Virus record (IMG/VR): IMGVR_UViG_3300040816_001340
Span: 1-59,279 of that record
DNA: 59,279 nt
Direction: 5' to 3' (one strand)
Source: a virus
Taxonomy: Duplodnaviria > Caudoviricetes
Every line of letters starts with the position of its first letter. Position 1 is the first letter of the stretch. A program made the position numbers and the translations under genes. Of this stretch, positions 1 to 57,244 are shown in pieces. Under the pieces are notes generated by a model. The model saw only the letters and a program-made list of their open reading frames with translations, did not search any database and was not told where the DNA came from.

Positions 1-365
1 TTAAGCTTTTTAACTAGCTCTTCTCTTGTTTTAACATGAAAAGTGCCAAAGTTTCTAATATCATTAAAGTAAACGTGGTCATCTTCGACAAAGTTTATTT
101 GTAGTCTAGAATGTTTCTTATTTACTCTTGACCAGCTTCCGGTCATACCTAAGGTATTAAATATGATATTCCTTTGAAGCTCAAACCAGATAAACTTTCC
201 TTTACAATTAACTGATAAGACTTTTTGTCCATTTAAGTTATCTAAGTTATCAATTGGCTTCTTAAGATATCTTCCACTTAAGACATCTAAGTTTTTAATT
301 GTTTTATTAGCGTAAAGCTTGTTAAGCTTATCAACATAAAGCTTTACTTCAGGTCCTTCTGGCAT
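1..365 (-). CDS. Fpg/Nei-family DNA glycosylase/AP lyase (partial; 3' end runs off window)
   Basis: Not in ORF track; translated by hand from ATG at 365: MPEGPEVK...NCKGKFIWF...NTLGMTGSW...FNDIRNFGTF. Shows the N-terminal catalytic P-E and the KGK, LGMTG and D-x-R-x-FG motifs of Fpg/Nei. Confidence 0.92.
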   Translation of the reverse strand, partial: MPEGPEVKLYVDKLNKLYANKTIKNLDVLSGRYLKKPIDNLDNLNGQKVLSVNCKGKFIWFELQRNIIFNTLGMTGSWSRVNKKHSRLQINFVEDDHVYFNDIRNFGTFHVKTREELVKKL

Positions 366-367
366 TT

Positions 368-856
368 TTACTCGATTGCTAGACTGTAAGGTTCCTCGTA
401 AAGGCATCCATCTGCAAGACACCGACCAATATATTCCTGTAGCTCTTCAAAGCTAGTACATACCTTAATTCCACTTCTTGCAAGCATTAGATTAAACTTA
501 GCATTTGGCGGAAGACCTGCACAATAATAAATGATAGGCTTACCAAGCGCATAAGCATAACCTGCTTCCCAAATAGTTCCAATATCCTTATCACGAGTAT
601 TTACAAAAACAAAATCAGCCGTTTCAATATGATGAAGATTACCTTCAAAGGTCTGATCTTGAACCTCTTTTGGTGCATTTGGCGGACAAACAAAGATCTG
701 TCTTGGCGCTGCCATGTCAACACCTTCTAGGCCACCAAAATATCCTTCTAGTTGATCCAGCTCTTCAGCTGCTGCAGGTGAAAACCATCCGCTTGCAAGA
801 TACATTTTCCATTTGTGATCTTTAGGCATTAGAATCATATCAGTCATATTAAGCAT
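368..856 (-). CDS. Nucleoside 2'-deoxyribosyltransferase-family (NDT/DNPH1/MilB-like) N-glycosidase
   Basis: YLASGWF, DIGTIWEAGYAYALGKP (catalytic Glu) and NLML motifs; exact start uncertain (several Met). Confidence 0.88.
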   Translation of the reverse strand: MLNMTDMILMPKDHKWKMYLASGWFSPAAAEELDQLEGYFGGLEGVDMAAPRQIFVCPPNAPKEVQDQTFEGNLHHIETADFVFVNTRDKDIGTIWEAGYAYALGKPIIYYCAGLPPNAKFNLMLARSGIKVCTSFEELQEYIGRCLADGCLYEEPYSLAIE

Positions 857-1826
857 TCTCCTTATTTAGTGTTGTACGAATATCATTGATTGCTGCAACA
901 TCAGCATCCCATAGTCGAGTAAAAGTCTTTTGGAAAGGATCACCGTTTGTTCCGTTAAGTGCCTCACGGCGGCAAGGATAAATTGTATCCTGCTCATGAT
1001 AGTCAAATGAATCATTCTTTGGCTCAGGCTGATAAAGGTTTGTACCTTTGCTTGTCCATGTATCTCCTTCCTTAACACGGAAAGTCTTAATGTAATGCAT
1101 ATCAGGTCGCTCAAAGTCAAGAACAGTTGAAAACTCTGGAATACACTCACAAATAAGACGTGCCATTTGAGTCGCAAGAATGTTATCAACCTCAGGCTGA
1201 ATTTGAACATCTTGACGTTGTCGAACAAGACCAATCAAATCCTTAATGTTAAACCTAGCATAATAGAAAGAAGTAAGGCATTTAGGAAGGATAATACGTG
1301 CATCCATCATTGAAATAACCTTAGAATCAACCATGTCAGCATAAAGCTGCTTTGTATCGTTAACAAGTTGCTGGTAACGGTCATAAAACTCAGGCGAGTT
1401 TTCAATAGCCTCTGGAACAACAGCAGGATCATCACGAAGATCACGATCACCCGTGCATTGTGCTGCAAATGAACCGGCACGATGTCGAATAAGATGTGTT
1501 ACTGTTTGAAGAGAAATTCCACTAATTCTAAACGTAAAACCAAGGCACTCCATAGGCGTAGGCAAAGCTCTAAAGTTAAGAACATCAATAAGATTAAGTG
1601 ACTTATCACGTGTAGAAACATTATCAGGAGAAGATTGCCAAGGATCGTCCGCCCAGGTCGCTTTTGTATAACACCATGCAACATTATGTGCCTGCTCTCG
1701 TGATGGCGCATCAACTAGCTCCACCTTAAGAGCTTCAAGATTGTTTTGAAATGTCGTATTACAAGATTGTCCAAACTTAAGATCCATAGGAAGAGTAATC
1801 GGGTCAATGTTATTATTAAGTGGCAT
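849..1826 (-). CDS. Divergent ThyX-fold flavoprotein (ThyX paralogue with altered active site)
   Basis: TPME..FTFRISGIS, LIRHRAGSF and DARIILP match the ThyX fold, but RHR-x7-S-x-RY reads RHR-AGSFAAQ-C-TGD; has a C-terminal extension. Confidence 0.85.
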   Translation of the reverse strand: MPLNNNIDPITLPMDLKFGQSCNTTFQNNLEALKVELVDAPSREQAHNVAWCYTKATWADDPWQSSPDNVSTRDKSLNLIDVLNFRALPTPMECLGFTFRISGISLQTVTHLIRHRAGSFAAQCTGDRDLRDDPAVVPEAIENSPEFYDRYQQLVNDTKQLYADMVDSKVISMMDARIILPKCLTSFYYARFNIKDLIGLVRQRQDVQIQPEVDNILATQMARLICECIPEFSTVLDFERPDMHYIKTFRVKEGDTWTSKGTNLYQPEPKNDSFDYHEQDTIYPCRREALNGTNGDPFQKTFTRLWDADVAAINDIRTTLNKENA

Positions 1827-1854
1827 TTAATTTCCTTTTGTTATTTGTGTCAAT

Positions 1855-1883
1855 ATAATAAATAATTTTTGTCTAATTTACAA
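1855..1883 (-). promoter_or_regulatory. Sigma70-like promoter for the thyX'-NDT-nei operon
   Basis: Minus strand TTGTAA-17 bp-TATTAT, followed by an AAGGAA RBS. Confidence 0.65.
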
Positions 1884-1884
1884 C

Positions 1885-2829
1885 TTATTTTAATTTTAAC
1901 GATAAATCCAAAACTTTGTAATGCATATTCTCTAAAGATGTTTCGTAAATATATTCGTCTTTCTTTGGATGATCTAAAATGCTTTTGTTATATTCATAGA
2001 TTGGCATTACAACTGGAACATTATGATTTGCATATTCACTTACATGTTTAGGTGAATCATCAATTGCAAACTTAAATCTTCCATCCAAATAAAAGTCTTG
2101 TTTTGCCAACCAAATATATTTTTCAGAAGAAAAGTTTAGCTTGTCAAATACAATATTACTATCAAGCAGACTCTGAAGTGTTTGATATTTGCATCTTAGA
2201 TTTGCTTCTGGTCTGCTTGTTAGTAACTGGATTTCATAGCCTGACTTTTGTAAAGCTTCTGTCATAAGAGAAGCATTTTGAAAAGCTGGAATTGTTAGTA
2301 GACCATCTTCTTCCATAAACTCTTCAAAAACACTTTCAGGACTTAATCCAATGTCTTTAACAGCAATAGATGAATAATACTGATTTGAGTTATCATCAAT
2401 CTCTATTGAGTATGTGTCTCTAATCCACTGATTAAATGTAGATCTAAAAGAGACAAGAACATCATCAATATCCACAACAACAACAGGCTTATTGGTAGTT
2501 CTATATGCAACATCTTTATGAAGATAGTTGTCTTTATGTTGAAATGCTTTTAAGAAAGTATCTTCATTAATATCATATAAGTTTAGTATTGCTAGCAAAT
2601 ATCTAAATGCGTCAACAGACTTATATAAGACTTTACCTTTATCAACTGTAAACTCGTCTTTATCATAGAACTTATAGTTTGTTGACGATACAATCTGAGT
2701 AGTCTCACTATGTAAAGAAAGTGACAAAGTCTTAAGCATCTCTTCTTTTTGTTTAGAAGACATATTGTTTTTATCGTAAAATAAGTTTGAAAACTTTTCT
2801 TGTAGTTCTAAATATTTTTTTAAGTCCAT
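1885..2829 (-). CDS. Fusion: degenerate all-alpha NTP-pyrophosphatase domain + HAD 5'(3')-deoxyribonucleotidase (NT5C-like)
   Basis: C-terminal HAD motifs VVVDIDDVL, LLTSRP, FAIDDSPKHV; the N-terminal ~110 aa resembles the 3898..4275 protein (VDAF.Y....L...F..AF..K). Confidence 0.8.
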   Translation of the reverse strand: MDLKKYLELQEKFSNLFYDKNNMSSKQKEEMLKTLSLSLHSETTQIVSSTNYKFYDKDEFTVDKGKVLYKSVDAFRYLLAILNLYDINEDTFLKAFQHKDNYLHKDVAYRTTNKPVVVVDIDDVLVSFRSTFNQWIRDTYSIEIDDNSNQYYSSIAVKDIGLSPESVFEEFMEEDGLLTIPAFQNASLMTEALQKSGYEIQLLTSRPEANLRCKYQTLQSLLDSNIVFDKLNFSSEKYIWLAKQDFYLDGRFKFAIDDSPKHVSEYANHNVPVVMPIYEYNKSILDHPKKDEYIYETSLENMHYKVLDLSLKLK

Positions 2830-2845
2830 GTTTACCTCTGGACTT

Positions 2846-2875
2846 ATTATATCTTATTTGTATCTATTTTTACAT
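2846..2875 (-). promoter_or_regulatory. Sigma70-like promoter
   Basis: ATGTAA-18 bp-TATAAT, then a GAGG RBS upstream of 2829. Confidence 0.55.
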
Positions 2876-3238
2876 TATTTCTTTAACAGCTGCAGTAAAA
2901 TCATCTAGCTGCTTATCAGTCATACTACTAGCAAAAGTATTTATGATAATGTCTACCTGTGATTGATTCATTGTAAAGCCAGTTTGTGCAACTAGAACAA
3001 ATAGCGCTAATAAAGTTGTAGAATACTTAAGCTGAAGTTTATTTGTAATTGAATCATCAACATCATCTCTAAATCTCATTGAGTCACGAAGTTCTTCTAG
3101 AAGTGCATATGCAGAGTTTAATGACCCTACTTTATCAGCAATCATATTTATTGCTGCTTCTAACTTAACTTTTTGAGGTGATGGTTTCATCTCTTCTTCA
3201 ATAGCTTCTAGGAGTGGCTTTAATGTATACTTACTCAT
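2870..3238 (-). CDS. Hypothetical protein
   Basis: 122-aa ORF tightly packed in the operon; no family motif recognised. Confidence 0.75.
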   Translation of the reverse strand: MSKYTLKPLLEAIEEEMKPSPQKVKLEAAINMIADKVGSLNSAYALLEELRDSMRFRDDVDDSITNKLQLKYSTTLLALFVLVAQTGFTMNQSQVDIIINTFASSMTDKQLDDFTAAVKEIM

Positions 3239-3239
3239 T

Positions 3240-3896
3240 TTAATCCTTACTTAAAATAATATCTTTAACTATTTGTTTATCTTCATTACTAAGCACAAAC
3301 TTAATGTCTCTTGAAGCTAATAAATCTTTTATTGTTAACGTTCTATATTTATTGTAATAGTAATAATAAGATAAAGTTCTTGCAATATTACTATTTATAT
3401 CACTTTCTTCAGAATATGAAGTAAATTCTAATGCTTCTTTTGCATTAACAATTTCTTTTGCAATACTAGCAATAAAAGAAGCCTTAAATCTTTCATATGT
3501 TTGTATATTAGTGTTATAAATACAGTTTGCAATAATAATACCATCATCAATCTCATCTGTCGTAGAGTAAGGAACTTCATCCTCATTTACTACAAAATAA
3601 AAGGTATTGTTAACTTCTGTATACTTTACCTTGTTTCGTAACAAAACATTTGCTTCAACTGAAAGATCTGTTTTTTCAAATATAGAAGCATTTGCATTTT
3701 TACTTAAAAAAGGAACCTCTTTATCAAAAACAACTTGTTTATCTTGATGAAACATTATTAAGACTTCACGATAGTTTAGAAAAAGTGTCATCTCAAACTC
3801 TGTTAGCAAACCTAGATAATTTAGAATATGAGATTCTACTTTTTTCTCGTATGTCTCAATAAAATCATCTACATCACTATCGAATTTGTAATTCAC
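3240..3896 (-). CDS. Hypothetical protein
   Basis: 218-aa ORF with GTG start, separated by 1 nt from both neighbours. Confidence 0.75.
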   Translation of the reverse strand: MNYKFDSDVDDFIETYEKKVESHILNYLGLLTEFEMTLFLNYREVLIMFHQDKQVVFDKEVPFLSKNANASIFEKTDLSVEANVLLRNKVKYTEVNNTFYFVVNEDEVPYSTTDEIDDGIIIANCIYNTNIQTYERFKASFIASIAKEIVNAKEALEFTSYSEESDINSNIARTLSYYYYYNKYRTLTIKDLLASRDIKFVLSNEDKQIVKDIILSKD

Positions 3897-3897
3897 T

Positions 3898-4275
3898 TTA
3901 ATATCCGTCAGTCAGCCTTTTCTTAATTATTTCGTGTTTTCTCTCAAAGGCACTAAAAAATTTCTTGCTATCAACACCACAAAGAATTAAAAGATTAAAA
4001 AAGTAGTTAAAAGCATCTACGATTTCTTCTAAAAATTCCTCTTGATCAATGTCAGGAAGATCAGATGTTCGATGAGGTTTCCAGTTTTTAAGATGACCTA
4101 AAGCCTCAAACATTTCTTCAACACCATTAAGCGCAATTTGTCGAATAAACTTTTGTGACTCTTTTGTTGTAATATCAACAGGCCACTGATTTGGAAATGA
4201 CTCTGGAAACCTTTTAATTAAAAGCTGTAAAAACTCTTCTCTATGTGTAAAAATAGTTTCTAGCTTATCTTTCAA
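3898..4275 (-). CDS. All-alpha (dimeric dUTPase/MazG superfamily, T4 gp56 dCTPase-like) NTP pyrophosphatase
   Basis: VEEMFEAL, NWKPH, FLEEIVDAF metal-binding motifs and C-terminal KRLTDGY; start uncertain (TTG). Confidence 0.85.
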   Translation of the reverse strand: MKDKLETIFTHREEFLQLLIKRFPESFPNQWPVDITTKESQKFIRQIALNGVEEMFEALGHLKNWKPHRTSDLPDIDQEEFLEEIVDAFNYFFNLLILCGVDSKKFFSAFERKHEIIKKRLTDGY

Positions 4276-4292
4276 TTTAATACCCTTTATTG

Positions 4293-4496
4293 TTAAGTGT
4301 CGTCTTTGGCACCTTCTGCAATAATTCTATCTAAATTTTGATTAAATACATGCATATAATCTTGGTCAATTTCCAAGACACCTTCAGCCTCAACTAACTC
4401 TAACATTCTAAAGTTATCTGTAATATCTGTTCCTGTCATAATAGCCATTTGTAGCAGTTTAACCACGTGTGCAATTGTATCGTCACTTAACTTCAT
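4293..4496 (-). CDS. Small hypothetical protein
   Basis: 67-aa ORF with AGGAGA RBS. Confidence 0.75.
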   Translation of the reverse strand: MKLSDDTIAHVVKLLQMAIMTGTDITDNFRMLELVEAEGVLEIDQDYMHVFNQNLDRIIAEGAKDDT

Positions 4497-4504
4497 ATTA
4501 TCTC

Positions 4505-4885
4505 CTATACTATAATTGGGTTTTTCTTTGTTTTAATTGCAATAGATTCAGTGTCATGATCAATTAGTTTTGCCATGTCTAAGTTTTCAATTCTTATTAG
4601 ACCTTTCAACACCTTCATGCATGCATCTAAATCTTTTGGATTTGGATCGTTAGGATCAACATATTTCGGGTTATATGAAATGTTTAATTCTATTATTCTT
4701 TTTCCACTTGATGTTCTTTTATCTGAAAGGGGTCTTGTCTGCCTGACAGTTGCAACACCTCCTAATGATCTTGCATCTGTTAAAATATCTAAAATGTTAG
4801 GATCATCTTTTCCTTCAATCTGAACTCTGCAGTGAACTAACATTTTAACTAAATCTTCGTGTCTCTCTTGTAATAAACCTGTCAT
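4505..4885 (-). CDS. Hypothetical protein
   Basis: 126-aa ORF with GAGG RBS and upstream ATATTTAG motif (4908-4915). Confidence 0.75.
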   Translation of the reverse strand: MTGLLQERHEDLVKMLVHCRVQIEGKDDPNILDILTDARSLGGVATVRQTRPLSDKRTSSGKRIIELNISYNPKYVDPNDPNPKDLDACMKVLKGLIRIENLDMAKLIDHDTESIAIKTKKNPIIV

Positions 4886-4919
4886 ATATTTACCTCATTT
4901 ACATAAACTAAATATATAT

Positions 4920-5627
4920 TTAATGATTATTAATTTCTCGATAAACATTAGTTGCAAAAGGCCAGATATTTACAATAATCTCTAGCATTCCTTTTGCTAG
5001 CTGCTGGATTTCCCATTGTGCGCCTTCATGAATTCTTAGATCAATAAACTTAAGAATATTATTAAGATTTGCTGTTGCGTAATACTTTGTATAAAGGTTC
5101 TGTGGAAGAATCATACGTGCTTGTTCTCTTGCAACGCCACCCTTGATAAGCTTTTCATAAAGTTCTAAAGAATCACTGCAGTGTTCTCGCACAACATCAG
5201 ATGCGCTACCTTCGCCGCCAAAGCCTGTAAAAATGTTAGGATTTACTAGATCATCTGTAGATGCTTGTCGATTTGAAGATGACTGCATTCTAAAAGAAGC
5301 AGGAAAATAAAACTTCATATCATAGTCTGTATATCGTCTACTAATTTCGTTGTAACTCCATGTTCGATGTCGATGATGTTGCGACCGAATAAATAGAGGA
5401 ACTTCGATAAGAAATGTAGCAAAGTTATGTTCTAGAGTTGAAGTATGTTTATGTTTAATAAGATACTTGATAAGTTTACGATCACGATTATCTAATTCTT
5501 GTTTCTCAACACCAAACGAGACTCTAGCTGAGTTGACAATTGTAAGCTCGTCACCCATGCTTTGAACAAGACTAATGTGACCAATATCATCATTATATAA
5601 TTTAACAGTTAAATTGTTTGAACTCAT
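4920..5627 (-). CDS. thyX: FAD-dependent thymidylate synthase (canonical)
   Basis: IVNSARVSF, KHTSTLEH, RHRTWSYNEISRRY (intact RHR-x7-S-x-RY), AREQARMILP, AQWEI. Confidence 0.96.
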   Translation of the reverse strand: MSSNNLTVKLYNDDIGHISLVQSMGDELTIVNSARVSFGVEKQELDNRDRKLIKYLIKHKHTSTLEHNFATFLIEVPLFIRSQHHRHRTWSYNEISRRYTDYDMKFYFPASFRMQSSSNRQASTDDLVNPNIFTGFGGEGSASDVVREHCSDSLELYEKLIKGGVAREQARMILPQNLYTKYYATANLNNILKFIDLRIHEGAQWEIQQLAKGMLEIIVNIWPFATNVYREINNH

Positions 5628-5651
5628 TTATTTCCTCTTAATTTAATAGTT

Positions 5652-5680
5652 ATTATAGAATATAATTTGCATATTTACAT
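5652..5680 (-). promoter_or_regulatory. Sigma70-like promoter of thyX, overlapping a divergent plus-strand ATATTTAC motif (5671-5678)
   Basis: ATGTAA-17 bp-TATAAT on the minus strand. Confidence 0.6.
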
Positions 5681-5701
5681 TAAAAAATAAATAGAGGCAT
5701 T

Positions 5702-6211
5702 ATGACATATCATATAAACCTTCAACACAGACGTGGAGTTAAAGTTTTAAGAACTGATAACACTTCGAATGCTATTAGACAAATTGTTACAAATTCTTTA
5801 ATTACAGTCAATGGATCAACTATGGCTTACACTCCTCTAGAAGGATCGAGTTATGTAATATATGAGTTCGTATCTCAATTACAATATGACCAAACTTTTA
5901 ATAATGCGTTATTTAGACTTAGAATGGGAGATACTTCTTCTTCTTTATCAGCTATAGCTTCAGATGATACAGGTTATAAAATGAAATTTGGTACTGGAAC
6001 TTCTTATTCTGATATTATTGGTCCTCTTGCTACTAACAACGTTTGGTATAATCAGCAGGTAAATTTAAGATTTGCAATATCAACATCTGGATGGACTTCT
6101 GAAAAATTTGTTGGTCTAAAAATTCAATGCTCGCCTTACGAGTCAGGTTATCATAGGTCTAGAATTAATGCATATAGTTTTGATCCATTTGTAATTATGT
6201 ACTGCATATAG
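5702..6211 (+). CDS. Small beta-rich putative virion protein, family A paralogue 1
   Basis: Shares Y/F-T/I-P...YVIYE and C-terminal P-x-V-x-x-Y-C/S motifs with the next two ORFs. Confidence 0.6.
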   Translation: MTYHINLQHRRGVKVLRTDNTSNAIRQIVTNSLITVNGSTMAYTPLEGSSYVIYEFVSQLQYDQTFNNALFRLRMGDTSSSLSAIASDDTGYKMKFGTGTSYSDIIGPLATNNVWYNQQVNLRFAISTSGWTSEKFVGLKIQCSPYESGYHRSRINAYSFDPFVIMYCI

Positions 6212-6219
6212 GAGATATA

Positions 6220-6702
6220 ATGAGTTATTTTTTAGAAACAAGAGAACCTGGGTATTTTTCAAAATTCAAAGGTGCTAAATTAAACAATTCGACATTATCG
6301 CAGTCTATAGGGAGTGACTATACTTTTTGCTCTGGGTCAGAAATATCTTATATACCAGATGAAGGATCAGACTATGTTATATACGAATATTGTTTTTTTG
6401 CTGATAGCTACATTCGCATAGATACTAGACTTGTTTATAGTGAAGATGGTGGAACTACTTTTACTGAGTTGTCAGGCAATCGATCTTCGTTTAATTCAGG
6501 TGAAACAAGTTTAGAATTTGAAACTACATGTAATGTTAGACTTCTTATAGATAGCTGGGGTTCAACAGAAAGAATTTTTAGAATTGAAGGAAAAGGAAGC
6601 GGTGTTGTCTTACATAGAGCTGCAAATTTCATAAGATCCAGCTCCGCTCAAACAAAATATTTTATTCCTACAGTTGCTTGTTATTCTATAACAGAAAGTT
6701 AA
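6220..6702 (+). CDS. Small beta-rich putative virion protein, family A paralogue 2
   Basis: SYIPDEGSDYVIYEY and PTVACYSI; AGGAGA RBS. Confidence 0.6.
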   Translation: MSYFLETREPGYFSKFKGAKLNNSTLSQSIGSDYTFCSGSEISYIPDEGSDYVIYEYCFFADSYIRIDTRLVYSEDGGTTFTELSGNRSSFNSGETSLEFETTCNVRLLIDSWGSTERIFRIEGKGSGVVLHRAANFIRSSSAQTKYFIPTVACYSITES

Positions 6703-6704
6703 AA

Positions 6705-7151
6705 ATGAGTTACTTATTAAATAATTACAATATATTATCATATAAATCAGAAGTTGGTGAAACAGTTAGTACTCAGTTAATAAATAATTCTGCTCAAGAG
6801 TCTGTTAACGGAACAAGAATTAGTTTTACTCCTTTAATTAAAACAGAATTTATTATGTATGAATGTTACTTGCAAGCTAACTATCAAGATTATAATTCAG
6901 AGCTTTCAATTGAGTTATATGAAAACGATGGAACAGGTTGGACAAATCTTGGTGATATATTTTGTGTTAAAGAAAAATCTGCAGGAAATATGCAATTTGG
7001 TGACGCAACACATTTAAGATATTTAATTCCTGGTTATAGCGGAACTAAAACATATGAACTTAGAGCAAGAGCAACAAGTACTTCAACAGAAACAAACTTG
7101 CCACATAATAATATAATACCTACTGTCATAATGTATAGTTGGATTGAATAA
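6705..7151 (+). CDS. Small beta-rich putative virion protein, family A paralogue 3
   Basis: Likely start MSYLL at 6705, paralleling MSYFL/MTYHI; SFTP..EFIMYE and PTVIMYSW. Confidence 0.6.
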   Translation: MSYLLNNYNILSYKSEVGETVSTQLINNSAQESVNGTRISFTPLIKTEFIMYECYLQANYQDYNSELSIELYENDGTGWTNLGDIFCVKEKSAGNMQFGDATHLRYLIPGYSGTKTYELRARATSTSTETNLPHNNIIPTVIMYSWIE

Positions 7152-7172
7152 TTAGACTAAAAGGGTTTATAT

Positions 7173-7505
7173 ATGTCTTTTAATATCACAGCAACATCAA
7201 AGGTTGTTACAATATCTGGAACTTATAATATAACTAAGGCTGATTCTGTAGGTACTGTATTTATTGCAGATGATTCAAGTGCTGTAGTTTTTAATCTTCC
7301 TTTAGCAAGCAGTGTAATTGCAGGCACATACTACACAATTAAAAAACAAGGAGGATCAGGTACAGTTTCTATAAATGGTAGTGGTAGTGATACCATAGAT
7401 GGATCGGCTGCTAAAGTTATTTCCGGATCACAAATATGGGATACATATACAATTGCATCAGACGGTGTAGATAAATGGTATTTCCTAAGCTTTGGGGCTT
7501 CATAA
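7173..7505 (+). CDS. Small virion/tail-fibre-type beta domain protein, family B paralogue 1
   Basis: FNLP.AS...GTYYTIKK...SINGSGSDTIDG...SDG..KWY, a pattern typical of phage fibre/decoration domains. Confidence 0.6.
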   Translation: MSFNITATSKVVTISGTYNITKADSVGTVFIADDSSAVVFNLPLASSVIAGTYYTIKKQGGSGTVSINGSGSDTIDGSAAKVISGSQIWDTYTIASDGVDKWYFLSFGAS

Positions 7506-7515
7506 GGAAGTTATT

Positions 7516-7848
7516 ATGACGTTTAATATAAAATCTAATTATAAAACATACAATGTTATAACTTCGTCAACATATGATATAAGCCCAAAAACTCCGAACG
7601 GTTCAGTTTTTATTGCTGAATCTTCTAGTAATTCAGTAACGTTTAATCTGCCTTCAGTTGCTAATATTCCTATTGGAACTAGACTTCATTTCAAAAGAAG
7701 CACAGGAAGCAACAATGTTATATTAGATCCAGCAGGAACAGAACAAATTGATCAATTTACAACAAGAAGTTTAGCAGGATCCAACTGGGCTTTTACAATT
7801 ATTTCAAACGGAACTCAGTGGTATATAATAAGCTTTGGTGTTAGTTAG
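7516..7848 (+). CDS. Small virion/tail-fibre-type beta domain protein, family B paralogue 2
   Basis: Likely start MTFNI at 7516 (AAGGAAG RBS); aligns end-to-end with 7173..7505 (FNLP, WY..SFG.S). Confidence 0.6.
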   Translation: MTFNIKSNYKTYNVITSSTYDISPKTPNGSVFIAESSSNSVTFNLPSVANIPIGTRLHFKRSTGSNNVILDPAGTEQIDQFTTRSLAGSNWAFTIISNGTQWYIISFGVS

Positions 7849-12328: not shown

Positions 12329-12829
12329 TTAGTCTGAACTTCCTACTTGCCCGTCCTGTCTTTGAGCAGTAGAGGTTAGATTTAAGTATTCCTCTTCAGT
12401 TACGACCTGAAAATCATTGTCGCACTTCACTACTACAATTTGAAATGGCAGTTTTCTTTTAGCATAAATAGTATAGACATCAGAACCAGTATTTATACAA
12501 TTTACAAAAACTTCTCCTGTATAACCGCTGTCAATTACTCCAGCACGAACCTTTAGGGGTGTTTTAGTTACAGAACCTCTCTCTTGAACTAGTGCAACAT
12601 AACCTCGTGGAACATCAATTCTGATACCTGTTGGAATTAAGACTTTTTGTGGAGCTAATGAGCCTGATGGAATATTGCTAGAAGGTTTAATATCGATTGT
12701 TGGGCCACAGTTATAAAGATCTAAACCAGCACTTTCTCCTCCATAAGCTGGCAAATATTCACTTTCAGGATTGATTTTATTAACTTCTAAAGCACTTCGT
12801 AGATCATCACTTAAACAAATCTTAACCAT
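12329..12829 (-). CDS. dut: Trimeric (beta-fold) dUTPase with divergent motifs II, IV and V
   Basis: SAGLDL, ERGS, GVIDSGYTGE, RQDGQVGSSD. Confidence 0.88.
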   Translation of the reverse strand: MVKICLSDDLRSALEVNKINPESEYLPAYGGESAGLDLYNCGPTIDIKPSSNIPSGSLAPQKVLIPTGIRIDVPRGYVALVQERGSVTKTPLKVRAGVIDSGYTGEVFVNCINTGSDVYTIYAKRKLPFQIVVVKCDNDFQVVTEEEYLNLTSTAQRQDGQVGSSD

Positions 12830-14192
12830 TACTATTTACCTCTTTCCACTTCTCTTTAAGGATATTTTTCATAGCATTGTTATCTTGAGCAACTGCTTCA
12901 TTTAGTGTTAGTTCTGTATCATCTAGAATCTTAAACTTAGATCTTGCTGTATCAATACTTAATGGGAATAAAAGACCGTCACGACCTGCTCGGTTTTTAG
13001 CAACAAAGATTCGACCACTACCATCTGCTTTTTCTGTTGGCTTACGACTAATAGAAAGAACAATGTCGGCAACCTGTGCTTTACCATATGCTTCAGACAT
13101 GTTTTCTAGACCAACAATATCAGACTTAGCAGAGTCTTTGTTTGCCTGAGATGCTGTCCAAATAGGAACATTAAGATCAGATGCAAGGTTACGAAGTTCT
13201 GTATAGATAAGCTTTAGCTCGTGACGAAGAGAGTCATAAGCTCTTGTTGACTTCATAACATCAGCGTAATCTACAACGATAATAGAAGGCACGAAACCTT
13301 TAAGCATAAGCTTTTCAATATGATTCCTAATTGTTACTACAGAAGCACCTCCAGTAGGATATTCTTTAATAACAAGCCTGCCTAGATCCATTTCTTTATA
13401 CTTTGCAATAACTTCGTCTTTTCTTTCAATGACTTCATTGCTAGGAATGTTACAAAGATTTGAGTCATATCGCTTGCCTGTTTCATGCTCAGAAAGCTCA
13501 AAGGTATAGTGAACAACGTTTTTACCAACACGCATTGCAGCACAACCCATTTCTACCAAGAAGTGAGATTTACCAACACCTGTATTCGCTGCAACTACAC
13601 CAAGCTCACCTCTTCCTAAACCGCCTCGAAGAATATCTTGAGAGTCAAGTCGACCTAAACCTGTCGGGCATACCTGACGATTGATAGCTACAAAACGTGA
13701 TTCTAGATCTTCGAAGAAGTCATGTCCATTACTATTAGGAAGACCGACAGAGACAGCATTTTTCATAATATCAACAACATGTTCATATTTGTCTGTTTGA
13801 ATTAGCTCAACAGACTTTTCCAATGCCTCTTTGAATGCCTGTCTTTTACAAAACTCAAGGGACTTTTCTTTGACATATGCAATATCACACATATCAGGAC
13901 TTGTCTTCATTCGATGAAGATATTCAATGATTTGATCCCGGAGAGCAACATCTTTGCTACTAATAAGTTCATCTTTGATAATTGTTACTAGTAGTGAAAG
14001 TGTTGGAAAAGACTTATATTTTGAAAAGTAAGTAAAGTATTTTTCGCAAAGGTATTGTAAGTATTTAATATCAAAATACTCAGGTGTCATTACCTCGACC
14101 ATTTGTGCTGACCAATCTTTATCGGTGAGCATACTTTGAAATACTTTTTCTTGAAAAGTCTTTCCGTATTTGGAAAAGTTTTTCTCAGACAT
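12822..14192 (-). CDS. DnaB-like / T4 gp41-like replicative helicase
   Basis: Walker A ANTGVGKS, FELSE, VVDYAD, WTASQANK, KNRAG. Confidence 0.93.
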   Translation of the reverse strand: MSEKNFSKYGKTFQEKVFQSMLTDKDWSAQMVEVMTPEYFDIKYLQYLCEKYFTYFSKYKSFPTLSLLVTIIKDELISSKDVALRDQIIEYLHRMKTSPDMCDIAYVKEKSLEFCKRQAFKEALEKSVELIQTDKYEHVVDIMKNAVSVGLPNSNGHDFFEDLESRFVAINRQVCPTGLGRLDSQDILRGGLGRGELGVVAANTGVGKSHFLVEMGCAAMRVGKNVVHYTFELSEHETGKRYDSNLCNIPSNEVIERKDEVIAKYKEMDLGRLVIKEYPTGGASVVTIRNHIEKLMLKGFVPSIIVVDYADVMKSTRAYDSLRHELKLIYTELRNLASDLNVPIWTASQANKDSAKSDIVGLENMSEAYGKAQVADIVLSISRKPTEKADGSGRIFVAKNRAGRDGLLFPLSIDTARSKFKILDDTELTLNEAVAQDNNAMKNILKEKWKEVNSNG

Positions 14193-14200
14193 TTAATCTC

Positions 14201-15148
14201 CTAAATAATAATGGATGCTTTAACTGAAATGAGTAGATTATTGACGTCGTAATTATTAAGACCTTCACGCATCATAACGCGCATCAAATCCATTTTATTT
14301 TCCTTTTTGACCTTATTGTCATATTGATAATTGATAGATTTTATCTGCTGCCATGATAGACATGTGCTATCCAAATACATTAATTGCCAATTTTTTTTAA
14401 GTCTATTTTCCTTCAAAATTATCTCTTTTACAACTTTAGAGCTACTTTGAAGATTTTTTGTCTCTTCGATAATATCTTCAACAGAAATAAAGTCTTCTTC
14501 TTTAAGCTGCGGAAAATGTTTTAACATTGTCTTAAATCCCGCACCTTTTACGCCTTTAATTCCGTCACTCTGATCACCTACAAAACATCTAGCTGTGCAA
14601 AAGTTTGTTGATGAAACACCCCATTTAGCTAAAACTTCTTCTTTATCTATTATCTTCTTTTGATTTGGTGACCAAATAACATTATCATCGTCTATAAGCT
14701 GGTAATAATCCTTATCAGAAGTAACCAAAATTTTACGATGGCCAGCTTTTTTATTCTTGCTTATGTAACCAATCACGTCGTCAGCTTCACAATCATTTAC
14801 ATATATCTGTGTAACTGGAATGAACTTAAGTATTTCTATTAATGTTTTAAGCTGATCGTCTCTATTATCTTTGGTATCGTATCTATCTGAATAATAACCG
14901 CTTCTATTTAATTTGACAGGACGTTTGCCCTGTTTATAGTTAGGTTCTATTGCTCTTCTTCTACTTGAACCGCCTCCTTCCCAAACAATTGTCATTTTAT
15001 GGGGTCTAAACCTATCACATAAGTGTTGTATATTGCGCAAAAACCCTAAGATTCCTCCACACTGTGTGTTATGAAGAGAAACCGTAGGGTTTGCGCAATA
15101 GTGTCTCATAAAAACATTGAGACCATCTATTAAGATTTCAGGCTGCAT
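14201..15148 (-). CDS. 5'-3' exonuclease / flap endonuclease (T4 RNase H / PolI 5'-exo family)
   Basis: LIDGLN, YKQGKR, EADDVIG, TSDKDYYQL, GDQSDGIKGVKGAG; likely start MQPEIL at 15148. Confidence 0.93.
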   Translation of the reverse strand: MQPEILIDGLNVFMRHYCANPTVSLHNTQCGGILGFLRNIQHLCDRFRPHKMTIVWEGGGSSRRRAIEPNYKQGKRPVKLNRSGYYSDRYDTKDNRDDQLKTLIEILKFIPVTQIYVNDCEADDVIGYISKNKKAGHRKILVTSDKDYYQLIDDDNVIWSPNQKKIIDKEEVLAKWGVSSTNFCTARCFVGDQSDGIKGVKGAGFKTMLKHFPQLKEEDFISVEDIIEETKNLQSSSKVVKEIILKENRLKKNWQLMYLDSTCLSWQQIKSINYQYDNKVKKENKMDLMRVMMREGLNNYDVNNLLISVKASIII

Positions 15149-52546: not shown

Positions 52547-53638
52547 ATGACTTTTAGGCACAAAAAAAAACTTTTAGCTAATGCATTTGAAGAGTTAGCT
52601 TTAGAATGTATGAAAATACAAGTTCAAAAAGATAGAGACATTTATGAATATGCTCCTTCAATTGTTAATTTTCATAAAAACTTAATTCTAGGAAATCTTC
52701 AAGAAAGCTTAAATAAAGATTTTTTTGTCTATAACTATGACACTATCCTTAGAGAAAAGATAGATCATAGTAGTTTTCCAGTGTCAAATAGAAGACAAAT
52801 GGACAAGATAAATAGCATGCCACTTTCTATCTCAGAACGAGTAAAAAATGGTTATCTATTCAAACCTAATCACCTCTATTTAGAAAATAACTTGGTTAAA
52901 ATCAACTGGAAAAAGTTTAATCTAGAAGAACACATCAAATTCTTAAAAGAAAGTATTGTTCACGAGTCAATATCTATTTGTGATACAAATGTATTAAATG
53001 GCTACTGGGACGGATCAGATCTTTTAATGCAAAAGTCAAAAGGCATGATCAACGAAAGTGGTGCATTAGACTGTGATAAAAAGCCATATTCATACGCTAG
53101 AAAAGTATTTAATAAAACAGGTAAAGAAATTTATCGTGCTTTATCTAAAGAAGGTTTCTTAGTAGAAAACATATATGACGCCGGATCTTTAAGAAGAAAG
53201 AAAAGTGTTGTTGGTGATATTGACTTTATTGTAAACATCGTTGGTCATAATAAGCTAGGGCAGCTTAATAATAACGATTATAGAGAAGAAAAAATCTTTA
53301 CCGAACAATATCAGTGGTTATTTGGAAACGCTATTAAAAAGAATATAGAGACTGATATTTGTAAGTCTTATAAGAATATTACGCAGTTTATATCTGAAGG
53401 TATGCAATGTGATGTATTTTTCTGCACACCAACTTCTATTTCGACAAGAAGATGTTATTGGACAGGATCAGCAGCACATAATGTTAAGATTCTATATGAA
53501 GGCTTTAAGAAAGATATTATATTTTCTTTTGACTACATTTATGACAAAAATAACAAAAAGCTTCTAAAACCCAAGAGTGAAAAAGAGATCTTTAATATAT
53601 TTGGTCTCGATTACGTTCCACCAGAACAAAGATATTAA
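52547..53638 (+). CDS. Family X DNA polymerase with divergent N-terminal region
   Basis: AGSLRRKKSVVGDIDFIV, QCDV, YWTGSAAHN, SEKEIF..FGLDYVPPEQR. Confidence 0.9.
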   Translation: MTFRHKKKLLANAFEELALECMKIQVQKDRDIYEYAPSIVNFHKNLILGNLQESLNKDFFVYNYDTILREKIDHSSFPVSNRRQMDKINSMPLSISERVKNGYLFKPNHLYLENNLVKINWKKFNLEEHIKFLKESIVHESISICDTNVLNGYWDGSDLLMQKSKGMINESGALDCDKKPYSYARKVFNKTGKEIYRALSKEGFLVENIYDAGSLRRKKSVVGDIDFIVNIVGHNKLGQLNNNDYREEKIFTEQYQWLFGNAIKKNIETDICKSYKNITQFISEGMQCDVFFCTPTSISTRRCYWTGSAAHNVKILYEGFKKDIIFSFDYIYDKNNKKLLKPKSEKEIFNIFGLDYVPPEQRY

Positions 53639-55782: not shown

Positions 55783-57162
55783 TTAGTCCCAAACCCATAT
55801 ATTACTTCCACAACCCCATACCTTAAATAGTTTGAGCTTAGTAACCTTTTCTATTTCTTTCTCGTTCTTATCTGTCTTAAACATAAATCGATCAAATCTT
55901 TGAACACCATCAGAATACCAATAATCAACTCCTGTGTTACCAACATACTGAAATCCTACTTTCTCATACCCTAACCCTTCACCAAATCTTCGATCTGCAT
56001 ATGTCATGATACTTCCTTCATTATTTGCCTTAAAATACTTAAGAAGTTTACTTAATCCTCCTACTACGTTTGTATTTAACTGCGACGCAAACCTGCTAAT
56101 CTCCCAATAACCTTTCCATTTTCTCTGTCTAGGTTTTCTAAATCCTATTGCAGAAACTAACTTGCCATTATAGAACAGACCTAACTTAATACTACTATTT
56201 ACTTTGCCACTTATATGACATTCATTCATAAAGTTATTAAAAACTTTTGTTTCTAACTCTCTAACAACACATTTTCTTGCCCATATTCTTTCACATAAAC
56301 CTAAGCGACTTCTAATCATACTTTTGCAAATATCTTTCTTAAAATCCCATTCATCTGAAAATATGTGCATTAGTTTTGCGTTTTGTTCTAGCACTTTTTC
56401 TGTTTTATTTTTTAGTTCATTTTTTGACGTTCTATCAACTAGTTCACTATGCCAATACAAACCATTATATTCTATGCCAAAATGCTTGTCTGCAACATAT
56501 ATGTCTATCTCTTTAGGCTTTATTAGAGTTCTATCGTTACTTTTAACACTTTCGTCGACTAATGTCTTAACAAAATCATACACTTCGATTTCACTTTTAC
56601 TTCTAGAAATAGGATAACATTTAGGGCACAAAGATCCTCTTTCAAAAGCTTGTAATGTTTTCTTACAAACAAAGTCACATTTTTTACACTTAAACTCTAA
56701 ATACTGCCTTTGTCTACTAAAATACTCTTCTAAGGGAGTTAAGATTTCAAACTCTTCATTTCTCTGTAGTATTCGCTCTAATACTTTTTTATCACCTAAT
56801 CTTTTAGTAAAACTAATTCTATTTATTGTTTCTTCGCTATGTTTCTTTCCCCAAAAAGGATTGTCTTTACCCTTTTGACCTTTTATTCTGCTATCTTCTT
56901 TAGAAGTTTTGCCTTTATTCCACGCCTCATGACGACCGCCCCTTCGGCCACCTTCAGACATAGCAACCTTTGAACAATCAGAACAATACTTCTTAAACTG
57001 AAATGCTACATAACGTGTTTCTTTGCCGCAATTCTTACATCCTACATTGTTATTGTAAATGTATTTAGCCGTATATTCTTTACTTAAAAGTTTATGCTCT
57101 TTTTTTAAGTGATTGCTAAAATCTTTACCACTTGACTCATAATCACATATCTTGCATATCAT
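55783..57162 (-). mobile_element. Free-standing Hef/Vsr-like homing endonuclease with Zn fingers, NUMOD3 repeats and C-terminal GNAT/Mom-like domain
   Basis: Likely start MICKIC at 57162; AWNKG and NPFWGKKHSEET (NUMOD3); SKSE..EIDIY..IEYNGLYWHS..HIFSDEW nuclease; EISRFAS..GGLSKLLKYF..TYADRR. Confidence 0.82.
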
Positions 57163-57220
57163 ATCATTATACCTTTTCGTGGTGTCTATATAATATATAT
57201 GCACAACTTTTTTTATATAC

Positions 57221-57244
57221 AAAAAAACCAGCCGAAGCTGGTTT
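57221..57244 (-). terminator. Rho-independent terminator of the major capsid gene with cUUCGg tetraloop
   Basis: Minus strand AAACCAGC-TTCG-GCTGGTTT followed by a T-run. Confidence 0.9.

Follow-up and report, generated by a model that had tools for sequence, protein, structure and literature searches.

ThyXL, a divergent and almost exclusively viral ThyX-fold protein of a recurrent phage gene module, as a tentative source of a non-thymidylate pyrimidine nucleotide

Why should a phage encode two proteins of the ThyX (flavin-dependent thymidylate synthase) fold in one gene neighborhood, and what does the more divergent of the two make? The question is raised by the 59,279-base IMG/VR virus record IMGVR_UViG_3300040816_001340 (Duplodnaviria; Caudoviricetes), which was analyzed over its whole length and is here called the window. 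The two genes concerned are the following.

4920 to 5627, minus strand: canonical ThyX, 235 residues
849 to 1826, minus strand: ThyXL, a 325-residue paralogue of the ThyX fold

We tentatively favor the answer that ThyXL is a neofunctionalized flavoenzyme that modifies a pyrimidine deoxynucleoside monophosphate (dNMP) and yields a product other than thymidylate (dTMP), because its active site is rebuilt, it is strongly conserved, and it travels with nucleotide-trimming and salvage enzymes.

An earlier reading made from the sequence alone (the sequence-only reading) had recognized both minus-strand genes and called the one at 4920 to 5627 canonical, and the Pfam and TIGR02170 scores agree. This copy matches PF02511 at 1.1e-51, scores 180.4 bits on TIGR02170 (cut-off, 87.9), and matches Protein Data Bank (PDB) entry 6j61 (2.7e-41) and Thermotoga maritima ThyX (1e-37). 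ThyXL also matches PF02511 (1.4e-20; 74.3 bits, cut-off 24.8), and its 49.2 bits on TIGR02170 are under the thyX equivalog cut-off of 87.9.

ThyXL residues were mapped by a phmmer alignment to the T. maritima ThyX chains, whose numbering we trust because chain 4gtf is the H53A mutant and its alanine aligns with ThyXL Leu88. The alignment gave the same set of exchanged residues as had been listed before: H53>L88, R74>T110, Q75>H111, E86>A122, S88>C124, R90>G126, and Y91>D127 are substituted, and R78/H79/R80, R147 (as R177), and R174 (as R204) are kept. By our reading of the alignment, the equivalents of Thr55, Glu58, and Asn163, which contact flavin adenine dinucleotide (FAD), also appear to be kept. 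The active-site loop of ThyXL is RHR-x7-C-T-G-D-R, whereas ThyX has the RHR-x7-S motif with Ser88, Arg90, and Tyr91, and the position of His53 is occupied by Leu88-Pro89. From its place in the loop, four residues past Cys124, Arg128 may stand in for Arg90. According to the available part of PMC11940539, His53 of ThyX stacks on the folate, Ser88 and Tyr91 are neighbors of the flavin carbinolamine, both are strictly conserved and critical for methylation, and flavin oxidation is 1000-fold slower in a Tyr91 mutant. The available part of PMC6514825 gives Arg, Ser, and Arg as the contacts of deoxyuridylate (dUMP) in ThyX, with Tyr acting as a lid.

The AlphaFold2 model of ThyXL, built from a 66-sequence alignment, has a mean predicted local distance difference test (pLDDT) score of 96.6. 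Every Foldseek match of this model is ThyX or PolB, the top one being PolB (4p5b_C, 2.0e-10). Relative to T. maritima ThyX, the protein has 70 extra residues at the N terminus and about 90 at the C terminus (about residues 236 to 325). The C-terminal extension, already seen in the sequence-only reading, is confidently modeled and matches nothing else, and many of its residues are invariant among 151 close relatives. An ESM Atlas search with it returned only clusters from ThyXL's own family.

The ThyXL family is large and almost only viral. At E <= 0.001, a word-indexed protein search with ThyXL gave 1102 matches, and the top 120 have 311 to 336 residues and 65 to 96% identity; an exhaustive search of 50%-identity representatives gave 699 at the same threshold, of which 42 reached E <= 1e-30. 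A pattern scan of 185,579 bacterial and archaeal species, with one genome per species, found a single ThyXL locus. This locus, L034 (PBHZ01000014.1), is a 26-kb contig in a metagenome-assembled genome labeled Methanobacteriota; it carries NDT (see below), YfbR, ThyXL, MazG, polymerase III alpha, and kinase/mini-ThyA genes along with a TonB-dependent receptor-like gene and is probably a mis-binned viral contig or Bacteroidota associated. Geobacillus phage GR1, which is grown on Geobacillus stearothermophilus ATCC 10149, is the sole cultured phage with a close homologue, 48% identical to ThyXL across 93% of the protein.

In an alignment of 151 close relatives (the window protein, 30 locus proteins, and 120 database proteins), the segment V109-R131 is nearly invariant. 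RHR, Cys124, T125, G126, D127, and R128 are each found in 151 of 151 sequences, as is Leu88-Pro89, and the other positions of the segment vary in a few sequences at most or alternate between Leu and Ile. To judge from these alignments, ThyXL is under strong purifying selection and is no decaying copy. In a wider set of 66 sequences, which we chose from 270 available and in which identity falls to 22%, Arg114 and Pro267 are present in all 66, Arg177 and Arg204 in 65, Asp127 in 58, and Leu88 in 56. A FastTree phylogeny of 124 rows (SH-like support, no bootstrap; matches shorter than 190 or longer than 360 residues excluded; every fifth canonical locus copy included) over-represents ThyXL because its rows are matches to our own ThyXL query. 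A branch with SH-like support of 95 parts a canonical Ser/His clade of 17 rows, which includes the window copy at 4920 to 5627, from a clade of 107 rows, 98 of which are hydrophobic where ThyX has His53.

Is dTMP synthesis already provided for where ThyXL occurs? We searched 44 ThyXL-carrying viral records for PF02511 and found canonical ThyX and ThyXL together in 29, the window included. Both jumbo records rated 100% complete hold the two genes (G001, 284 kb; G019, 240 kb with terminal repeats), and within the clade that coexists with canonical ThyX identity among ThyXL proteins has fallen to about 60%. The other 15 records have ThyXL without canonical ThyX; 10 of these are fragments, 20 to 54% complete. 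Five near-complete small phages of 44 to 79 kb carry ThyXL only (G009, G011, and G012, each 100%; G028, 97%; and GR1, a complete genome), so that a divergent thymidylate synthase stays viable as an explanation. The earlier premise that dTMP synthesis is covered by the second gene thus stands for the jumbo clade, both complete genomes included, and falls for these five phages. To the earlier question of whether the family always co-occurs with a canonical enzyme and this neighborhood, the answer is that the neighborhood recurs and the canonical enzyme is not always present. ThyA (PF00303) was absent from the eight jumbo-type records and GR1 in which it was sought. A 56-kb phage, G010 (75% complete), has canonical ThyX, ThyXL, a ThyA homologue resembling the CMP hydroxymethylase MilA, and a glycosylase of the uracil-DNA glycosylase (UDG) family in one cluster.

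The genes around ThyXL in the window, including open reading frames (ORFs) that lack family matches, are as follows.

3 to 365, minus strand: Fpg/Nei DNA glycosylase, N-terminal part, cut by the window start (PF01149, 1.2e-21)
368 to 856, minus strand: nucleoside 2'-deoxyribosyltransferase (NDT)-family protein, 162 residues (PF05014, 8.2e-14, 52.2 bits, cut-off 28.8; phrog_7995, 2e-23)
1855 to 1883, minus strand: hexamer pair resembling a promoter (9 of 12 consensus positions) in the 58 bp that precede ThyXL
1885 to 2829, minus strand: MazG-like/HAD fusion, 314 residues (PF08761, 1.9e-04, below the cut-off; phrog_420, phrog_173)
2870 to 3896, minus strand: two ORFs of 122 and 218 residues between the MazG-like/HAD fusion and MazG125 (no match in Pfam, PHROG, or NCBIfam)
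3898 to 4275, minus strand: MazG125, an all-alpha MazG-type nucleoside triphosphate pyrophosphohydrolase, 125 residues (phrog_12184, 2.6e-15; phrog_173)
4293 to 4496, minus strand: conserved ORF of 67 residues that travels with the module in jumbo-type phages (no family match)
4505 to 4885, minus strand: ORF of 126 residues between the 67-residue ORF and canonical ThyX, from a cluster of 39 loci in part of the clade (no family match)
12329 to 12829, minus strand: classical trimeric dUTPase (PF00692, 7.6e-12 at 12335 to 12733)

The NDT start overlaps the ThyXL stop by 8 bp (849 to 856), and Fpg starts 2 nucleotides past the NDT stop if the ATG of MPEGPEV at 365 is its start; both arrangements had been noted before. 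The full-length Fpg orthologue in locus L004 has 266 residues and matches TIGR00577 at 4.4e-50, under the equivalog cut-off. NDT had been described as a glycosidase, a label that was not confirmed, as the protein is nearest to true nucleoside 2'-deoxyribosyltransferases (best PDB match, N-deoxyribosyltransferase 6evs, 5.8e-07). Its motifs YLASGWF and D-x-G-T-x-x-E-A-G, with the catalytic Glu, are conserved in 86 relatives, and the protein at 368 to 856 presumably lacks the phosphate-binding Arg motif of the dNMP hydrolase branch. The description of an all-alpha pyrophosphatase next to a fusion of a pseudo-pyrophosphatase and a HAD nucleotidase was correct. MazG125 has acidic motifs (EExxE...EExxD) conserved in 86 relatives; in the fusion at 1885 to 2829, the MazG-like N-terminal domain is without most catalytic acids, and the C-terminal domain is a HAD phosphatase of the 5'(3')-deoxyribonucleotidase type with its DxDxV, T, K, and DD motifs intact in 65 relatives. 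A PDB sequence search with the fusion gave no match. MazG125 need not be the dUTPase, since a separate trimeric dUTPase is encoded in the window. The 122- and 218-residue ORFs occur in 16 to 36 loci only and are not clade-wide. The suggestion that ThyXL has its own promoter was not upheld: the match at 1883 to 1855 on the minus strand is one of 24 promoter-like sites in the region, in which shuffled sequences lead one to expect 28.2, so there is no excess.

The IMG/VR locus search contributed the best 80 of 230 relatives, all from the close clade. For counting, loci were deduplicated by ThyXL sequence and had at least 3 kb on both sides, and genes at most 6 kb from ThyXL were scored, which left 63 jumbo-type loci and 6 loci of other lineages.

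MazG-like: 61 of 63 jumbo-type, 5 of 6 other
NDT: 54 of 63 jumbo-type, 6 of 6 other
67-residue ORF: 53 of 63 jumbo-type, 0 of 6 other
HAD domain: 47 of 63 jumbo-type, 0 of 6 other
Epimerase/dehydratase-like protein of the short-chain dehydrogenase/reductase (SDR) type: 39 of 63 jumbo-type, 0 of 6 other
Fpg: 38 of 63 jumbo-type, 0 of 6 other
Canonical ThyX: 28 of 63 jumbo-type, 0 of 6 other
YfbR-type HD 5'-deoxynucleotidase: 0 of 63 jumbo-type, 6 of 6 other

The YfbR-type protein matches PF12917 (5.9e-22), and its GR1 homologue is annotated as an HD-domain protein. The HAD nucleotidase of the jumbo phages and the YfbR-type HD nucleotidase of the small phages are non-orthologous replacements for one function. 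Nothing speaks more strongly for a functional grouping, as opposed to a merely inherited one, than this swap at the same place.

In the small phages, the gene order is MazG, NDT (in part kinase-NDT), YfbR, ThyXL, mini-ThyA (a short ThyA homologue described below), and DNA polymerase III alpha subunit, often with overlapping frames. In GR1, a nitroreductase-family protein (PF00881, 6.9e-24) is encoded directly upstream of ThyXL, and the record labels the MazG protein dUTP diphosphatase. DNA glycosylases recur in the form of Fpg/Nei, a 141-residue HhH-GPD protein (clustered across 29 loci), and, in locus L115, a member of the UDG family (L115:6296-7012; PF03167, 1.4e-17); apart from the last, they are absent from the small-phage modules. 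Just past the window start in relatives, Fpg is followed by the SDR NAD-dependent epimerase/dehydratase (L004:12300-13286), whose substrate could be a nucleotide sugar. A DNA polymerase III alpha gene (PHP/DnaE type) was seen a few kilobases downstream of ThyXL in all lineages examined (L004:15424-16818; L001:10802-14590); it is an unusual replicase for gp23-type myoviruses, seen also in jumbo phages that are T4-like by their capsid.

A second candidate base-modifying enzyme, the mini-ThyA, lies just outside the window in relatives. In small phages, it is encoded directly downstream of ThyXL as a protein of 179 to 217 residues (151 in GR1) with the ThyA core motifs RR, catalytic Cys, RS-x-D, and H-x-Y. 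The frames of ThyXL and mini-ThyA overlap or abut in L114, L116, L117, L118, and GR1; in L115, the neighbor is a full ThyA homologue of 302 residues (L115:9039-9947) with MilA (5b6d, 2.3e-15) as the best PDB match. In jumbo phages, mini-ThyA is joined at its N terminus to a thymidylate-kinase-like domain (phrog_761; P-loop EGPDxxGKT), and each makes up half of a protein of about 300 residues. Examples of this fusion are the following.

Locus L008, 16773 to 17681: kinase/mini-ThyA fusion
Locus L006, 17171 to 18148: kinase/mini-ThyA fusion
Record G044, 14142 to 15035: kinase/mini-ThyA fusion

The fusion was found in all five jumbo-type records searched, G044 among them, at about 6 to 11 kb from ThyXL, and is followed by thymidine kinase and DHH phosphoesterase genes. 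In G044, whose ThyXL is 89% identical to that of the window, the distance is about 11 kb, a position that would fall just outside the window; a search of the 59,279 bases for the fusion and for the kinase domain gave no copy. The AlphaFold2 model of the fusion (pLDDT, 93.7) has as its best Foldseek match the deoxycytidylate (dCMP) hydroxylase AfhB of phage HY126 (9iqu, 3.4e-07), followed by 9iqc (1.9e-06), a riboflavin-dependent monooxygenase with dCMP and FAD. C237, R228, R257, and S258 (catalytic Cys, RR, and RS motifs) are invariant in 21 fusion sequences. The residue after the RS motif, matched to Asp169 of Escherichia coli ThyA by motif reading, is Asp in 16 of them, Asn in 4, and Glu in 1, and is Asn in the GR1 homologue. 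Taken alone, the kinase domain matches a P-loop protein of GR1 (2.8e-17) and has a weak match (4.1e-04) to the N-terminal half of the 307-residue NDT protein of L114; NDT proteins about as long, from the same cluster, occur in L118 and L119. On these matches, domain fusions tie the kinase to mini-ThyA and, less securely, to NDT.

The available part of PMC13326640 reports that ThyA homologues of this kind hydroxylate dCMP at C5 using flavin and O2, that Asn in place of Asp169 (E. coli ThyA numbering) is diagnostic for such 5-hydroxy-dCMP (5hodCMP) synthases, that these bind flavin loosely, that a thymidylate-kinase-like gene adjoins them in DLP3, RB69, and RL38J1, and that they are active in E. 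coli without a ThyXL-like partner.

How might these parts work together? ThyXL would bind a pyrimidine dNMP stacked on its flavin; dUMP is the most likely choice because the equivalent of Arg174, which contacts the uracil side, is retained. For the same reason, dCMP, which the sequence-only reading had offered as a substrate, finds no specific support. The methylene transfer and reduction of standard ThyX would be lost, with Cys124 and Asp127 in place of Ser88 and Tyr91 and Leu-Pro in place of the folate-stacking His53. We read the reaction as changed because the flavin and nucleotide sites are kept, the folate and relay positions are exchanged, a new Cys and Asp are present, selection is strong, and ThyX coexists. 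Two routes are conceivable: (i) hydroxylation by reduced flavin and O2 or (ii) hydration of an exocyclic methylene to a hydroxymethyl group, with 5-hydroxy-dUMP or 5-hydroxymethyl-dUMP as the preferred products. Addition to C6 or protonation of C5 could fall to the Cys that replaces Ser88, as it does to the Cys of ThyA-type enzymes and AfhB. The MazG pyrophosphatase would convert deoxynucleoside triphosphates (dNTPs) to dNMPs, feeding the pathway or purging a triphosphate; the 5'-deoxynucleotidase (HAD or YfbR type) and NDT would drain or re-base a competing deoxynucleotide; the kinase fused to the AfhB-like mini-ThyA would handle modified dCMP; and in jumbo phages dTMP would come from canonical ThyX. 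A bolder version, which we regard as rather unlikely, would make ThyXL the first ThyX-fold builder of a non-thymine DNA base precursor, having dropped folate and using FAD with Cys/Asp to hydroxylate or hydroxymethylate a pyrimidine dNMP, convergently with AfhB; together with the module, it would place one or two modified pyrimidines in the DNA of GR1 and of a widespread marine jumbo-phage clade.

Several observations weigh against a non-thymidylate product or its incorporation into DNA. Cys124 is present in 53 of the 66 wider relatives, with Ser (4), Gly (3), Thr (3), Ala (2), or Asn (1) in the others, and the label changes about 15 times across the 124-row tree. From its distribution, Cys appears typical of the family yet not obligatory. 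Given these exceptions among the wider relatives, it is not necessarily a catalytic nucleophile, and the 13 relatives without it would caution against a role in attack or protonation. The sequence-only reading would have been countered by relaxed selection with no conserved Cys, which is not what the close relatives show (151 of 151), though the wider family keeps the Cys only in part. Cys and Asp could also replace Ser88 and Tyr91 functionally, with Arg128 for Arg90, and methylation may survive. Synteny inside the jumbo clade may reflect shared ancestry and not function. The neighbors, that is, thymidine kinase, a thymidylate-kinase-like domain, dCMP deaminase, MazG/dUTPase-like proteins, and NDT, fit a plain dTTP-supply island. 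The claim that they purge competing nucleotides is only partly sustained: the intact MazG and nucleotidase module recurs in unrelated lineages, but the set, dUTPase included, also looks like a thymidylate or salvage island. No glycosyltransferase was found in the jumbo module or beside the SDR gene, and the protein called glycosyltransferase inside the GR1 module (464 residues, L001:5537-6931) has no Pfam match at E <= 0.001. One family member, P0142, would favor the modification reading, as it has an N-terminal domain resembling viral GT-A glycosyltransferases (PF00535, 1.6e-04, below the cut-off; Atlas cosine, 0.96 to 0.97), but this fusion is one sequence on one contig; a search for longer fused ThyXL forms found none at E <= 1e-10, which is weak evidence.

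The main rival is that ThyXL is a divergent but genuine thymidylate synthase converting dUMP to dTMP, with Cys, Asp, and a shifted Arg in the flavin relay and perhaps another reductant or regulation, so that jumbo phages keep two isozymes. ThyXL is the only strong thymidylate-synthase-family gene in all five near-complete small phages. A dCMP deaminase was found in G001, G019, G009, and G011 and was not found in G012, G028, G010, or GR1; for G009 and G011, which have ThyXL only, the pattern fits dTMP synthesis by ThyXL. The arginines for FAD and dUMP are kept, the neighbors include thymidine kinase, a thymidylate-kinase-like domain, and the MazG labeled dUTP diphosphatase, and every source that names ThyXL calls it ThyX. 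However, ThyXL coexists stably with canonical ThyX across a diverged clade, both complete jumbo genomes included. Redundant isozymes are usually lost. In G010, ThyXL even occurs alongside both a canonical ThyX and a ThyA homologue resembling MilA, and the TIGR02170 score is 49 against a cut-off of 87.9 bits. Seven substrate- or folate-contact positions are changed together, among them Ser88, Tyr91, and His53, which are critical according to the available part of PMC11940539. On balance, we consider a second thymidylate synthase unlikely, although it is the alternative that survives best. The earlier proposal of a non-thymidylate product gains from the loss of these residues in a conserved, coexisting protein and is weakened by the small-phage pattern.

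It is considerably less plausible that ThyXL modifies no nucleotide itself and serves the AfhB-like mini-ThyA as an accessory flavoprotein, by flavin reduction or delivery or as half of a two-component oxygenase. The two genes are adjacent in L114, L116, L117, L118, and GR1, the mini-ThyA fold is nearest to flavin-dependent dCMP hydroxylases, which hold flavin loosely (PMC13326640, available part), and ThyXL has lost its folate-side residues and kept those on the FAD side. Against this, the same part of PMC13326640 describes 5hodCMP synthases that needed no such partner in E. coli. Moreover, ThyXL keeps R147 on the nucleotide phosphate side and R174 on the base side, GR1 has a separate nitroreductase-type flavin reductase by ThyXL, and the genes are about 6 to 11 kb apart in jumbo phages. 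A binding prediction for the ThyXL and mini-ThyA pair of L118 gave scores of 0.00 and 0.00 with no controls and counts neither way. That the genes form a nucleotide-pool sanitation or salvage island, in which ThyXL acts on damaged pyrimidine nucleotides (for example, by flavin/Cys-dependent C5-C6 reduction or oxidation), seems improbable as well: glycosylases do recur (Fpg/Nei at 38 of 63 jumbo-type loci, the 29-locus HhH-GPD cluster, and the UDG of L115), MazG and nucleotidases are classical house-cleaning enzymes, and reductases of the uracil C5-C6 bond usually work with flavin and a catalytic Cys, but no comparable case is known for the ThyX fold, the small-phage modules lack glycosylases except in L115, and the link to a kinase-fused mini-ThyA suggests synthesis and not clean-up.

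CheckV rates the record 19% complete. Its genes include those for a gp23-type major capsid protein, a recombinase like UvsX, a helicase like DnaB, a class I ribonucleotide reductase, and a tail-sheath stabilizer. The capsid protein has no close cultured relative; its best match is in an uncultured 484-kb phage (52% identity), and it is 44 to 47% identical to those of Microcystis and Flavobacterium myoviruses. Megablast of window bases 1 to 6000 against 50,697 phage records gave no match. Based on gene content, the capsid matches, and relatives on marine contigs of up to 284 kb, the window is a fragment of an uncultured marine jumbo myovirus. Elsewhere in the window, a 363-residue ORF at 52547 to 53638 on the plus strand, opposite to most genes, is a family X polymerase candidate (DNA polymerase beta thumb domain, PF14791, 2.9e-13). 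A 479-residue ORF at 55783 to 57222 (minus strand) has a NUMOD3 motif and a weak match to the Mom family (PF25680, 26.2 bits; cut-off, 27.1); as Mom is a DNA adenine-modifying enzyme, this ORF may be a further DNA-modification gene. Beside canonical thyX, five small ORFs of 169, 160, 157, 110, and 118 residues lie in tandem at 5702 to 7848 (plus strand), apparently as two paralogue sets; the related cluster has 50 members in just 11 loci and is a multicopy family adjoining a thyX gene.

Among the closest characterized proteins, T. maritima ThyX (TM0449; PF02511, TIGR02170) has the same fold (Foldseek E about 1e-9; target-normalized TM-score, 0.73 to 0.79) and shares RHR, phosphate-side Arg147, and base-side Arg174 with ThyXL. 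In contrast to it, ThyXL has seven replaced residues, extensions at both ends, a sub-cut-off score, a clade of its own, and a nearly viral-only range. According to the available part of PMC5954106, PolB, which in Streptomyces methylates UMP and dUMP on the way to polyoxin, is the only neofunctionalized ThyX paralogue described. PolB (4p5a/4p5b) is the top Foldseek match of ThyXL and likewise coexists with canonical ThyX in its genome. However, it still methylates, with relaxed sugar specificity rather than a rebuilt catalytic loop (PMC5954106, same part); it is bacterial and belongs to an antibiotic pathway, and the PDB sequence search pairs PolB 4p5a with the canonical ThyX of the window (4.3e-28) and not with ThyXL.

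The pre-replicative pyrimidine-substitution systems of phages (T4 gp42/gp56/gp1; RB69 gp48 and HY126 AfhB with their kinases) resemble the module in that a thymidylate-synthase-like enzyme is accompanied by an all-alpha dNTP pyrophosphatase and by a dedicated kinase close to it, and the kinase gene beside the 5hodCMP synthases of DLP3, RB69, and RL38J1 parallels the kinase/mini-ThyA fusion (PMC13326640, available part). Their characterized modifying enzymes all have the ThyA fold according to the same source, whereas ThyXL has the ThyX fold; the module adds NDT and a 5'-deoxynucleotidase, and 16 of the 21 fused mini-ThyA proteins keep Asp, by motif reading, where the synthases have the diagnostic Asn. 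The dCMP methyltransferase of Xp12 was considered as a ThyX-like case and ruled out, since its record shows a ThyA-type thymidylate synthase with dihydrofolate reductase, dCMP deaminase, and HAD hydrolase. In the literature, supplementary files and the AfhB paper of He et al. being outside the scope, we found no description of a phage ThyX-fold base-modifying enzyme. In the available parts of PMC7824862 and PMC8989533, ThyX figures solely as a thymidylate synthase or where mechanisms are compared, and the main text of PMC8670742, its supplementary domain-association tables aside, has no ThyX or Thy1 term.

A new product, if real, would give modified DNA bases a second enzymatic origin beyond the ThyA fold, and hundreds of marine phage genes labeled thymidylate synthase ThyX would need relabeling, as the family is large and ocean metagenomes are rich in it. 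If ThyXL turns out to be no more than a divergent thymidylate synthase, residues thought to be essential for ThyX would prove dispensable. For mechanistic enzymology, it is a natural ThyX with Ser88, Tyr91, and His53 all replaced; MazG, nucleotidase, NDT, ThyXL, and kinase/mini-ThyA make up a defined five-gene set, and one carrier, GR1, is in culture.

The organization also recalls the Z-genome cluster PurZ/MazZ/DatZ of S-2L-like cyanophages, in which a base builder is reportedly flanked by a MazG-type pyrophosphatase that feeds the monophosphate and an HD-type hydrolase that purges the canonical competitor. That cluster is said to perform purine chemistry with an adenylosuccinate-synthetase homologue that has no sequence relation to ThyXL, so the likeness is an analogy only. 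Set beside the pyrimidine-substitution systems, the present locus suggests a nucleotide-modification module that is likewise derived from thymidylate synthase but built on the other fold, that of ThyX.

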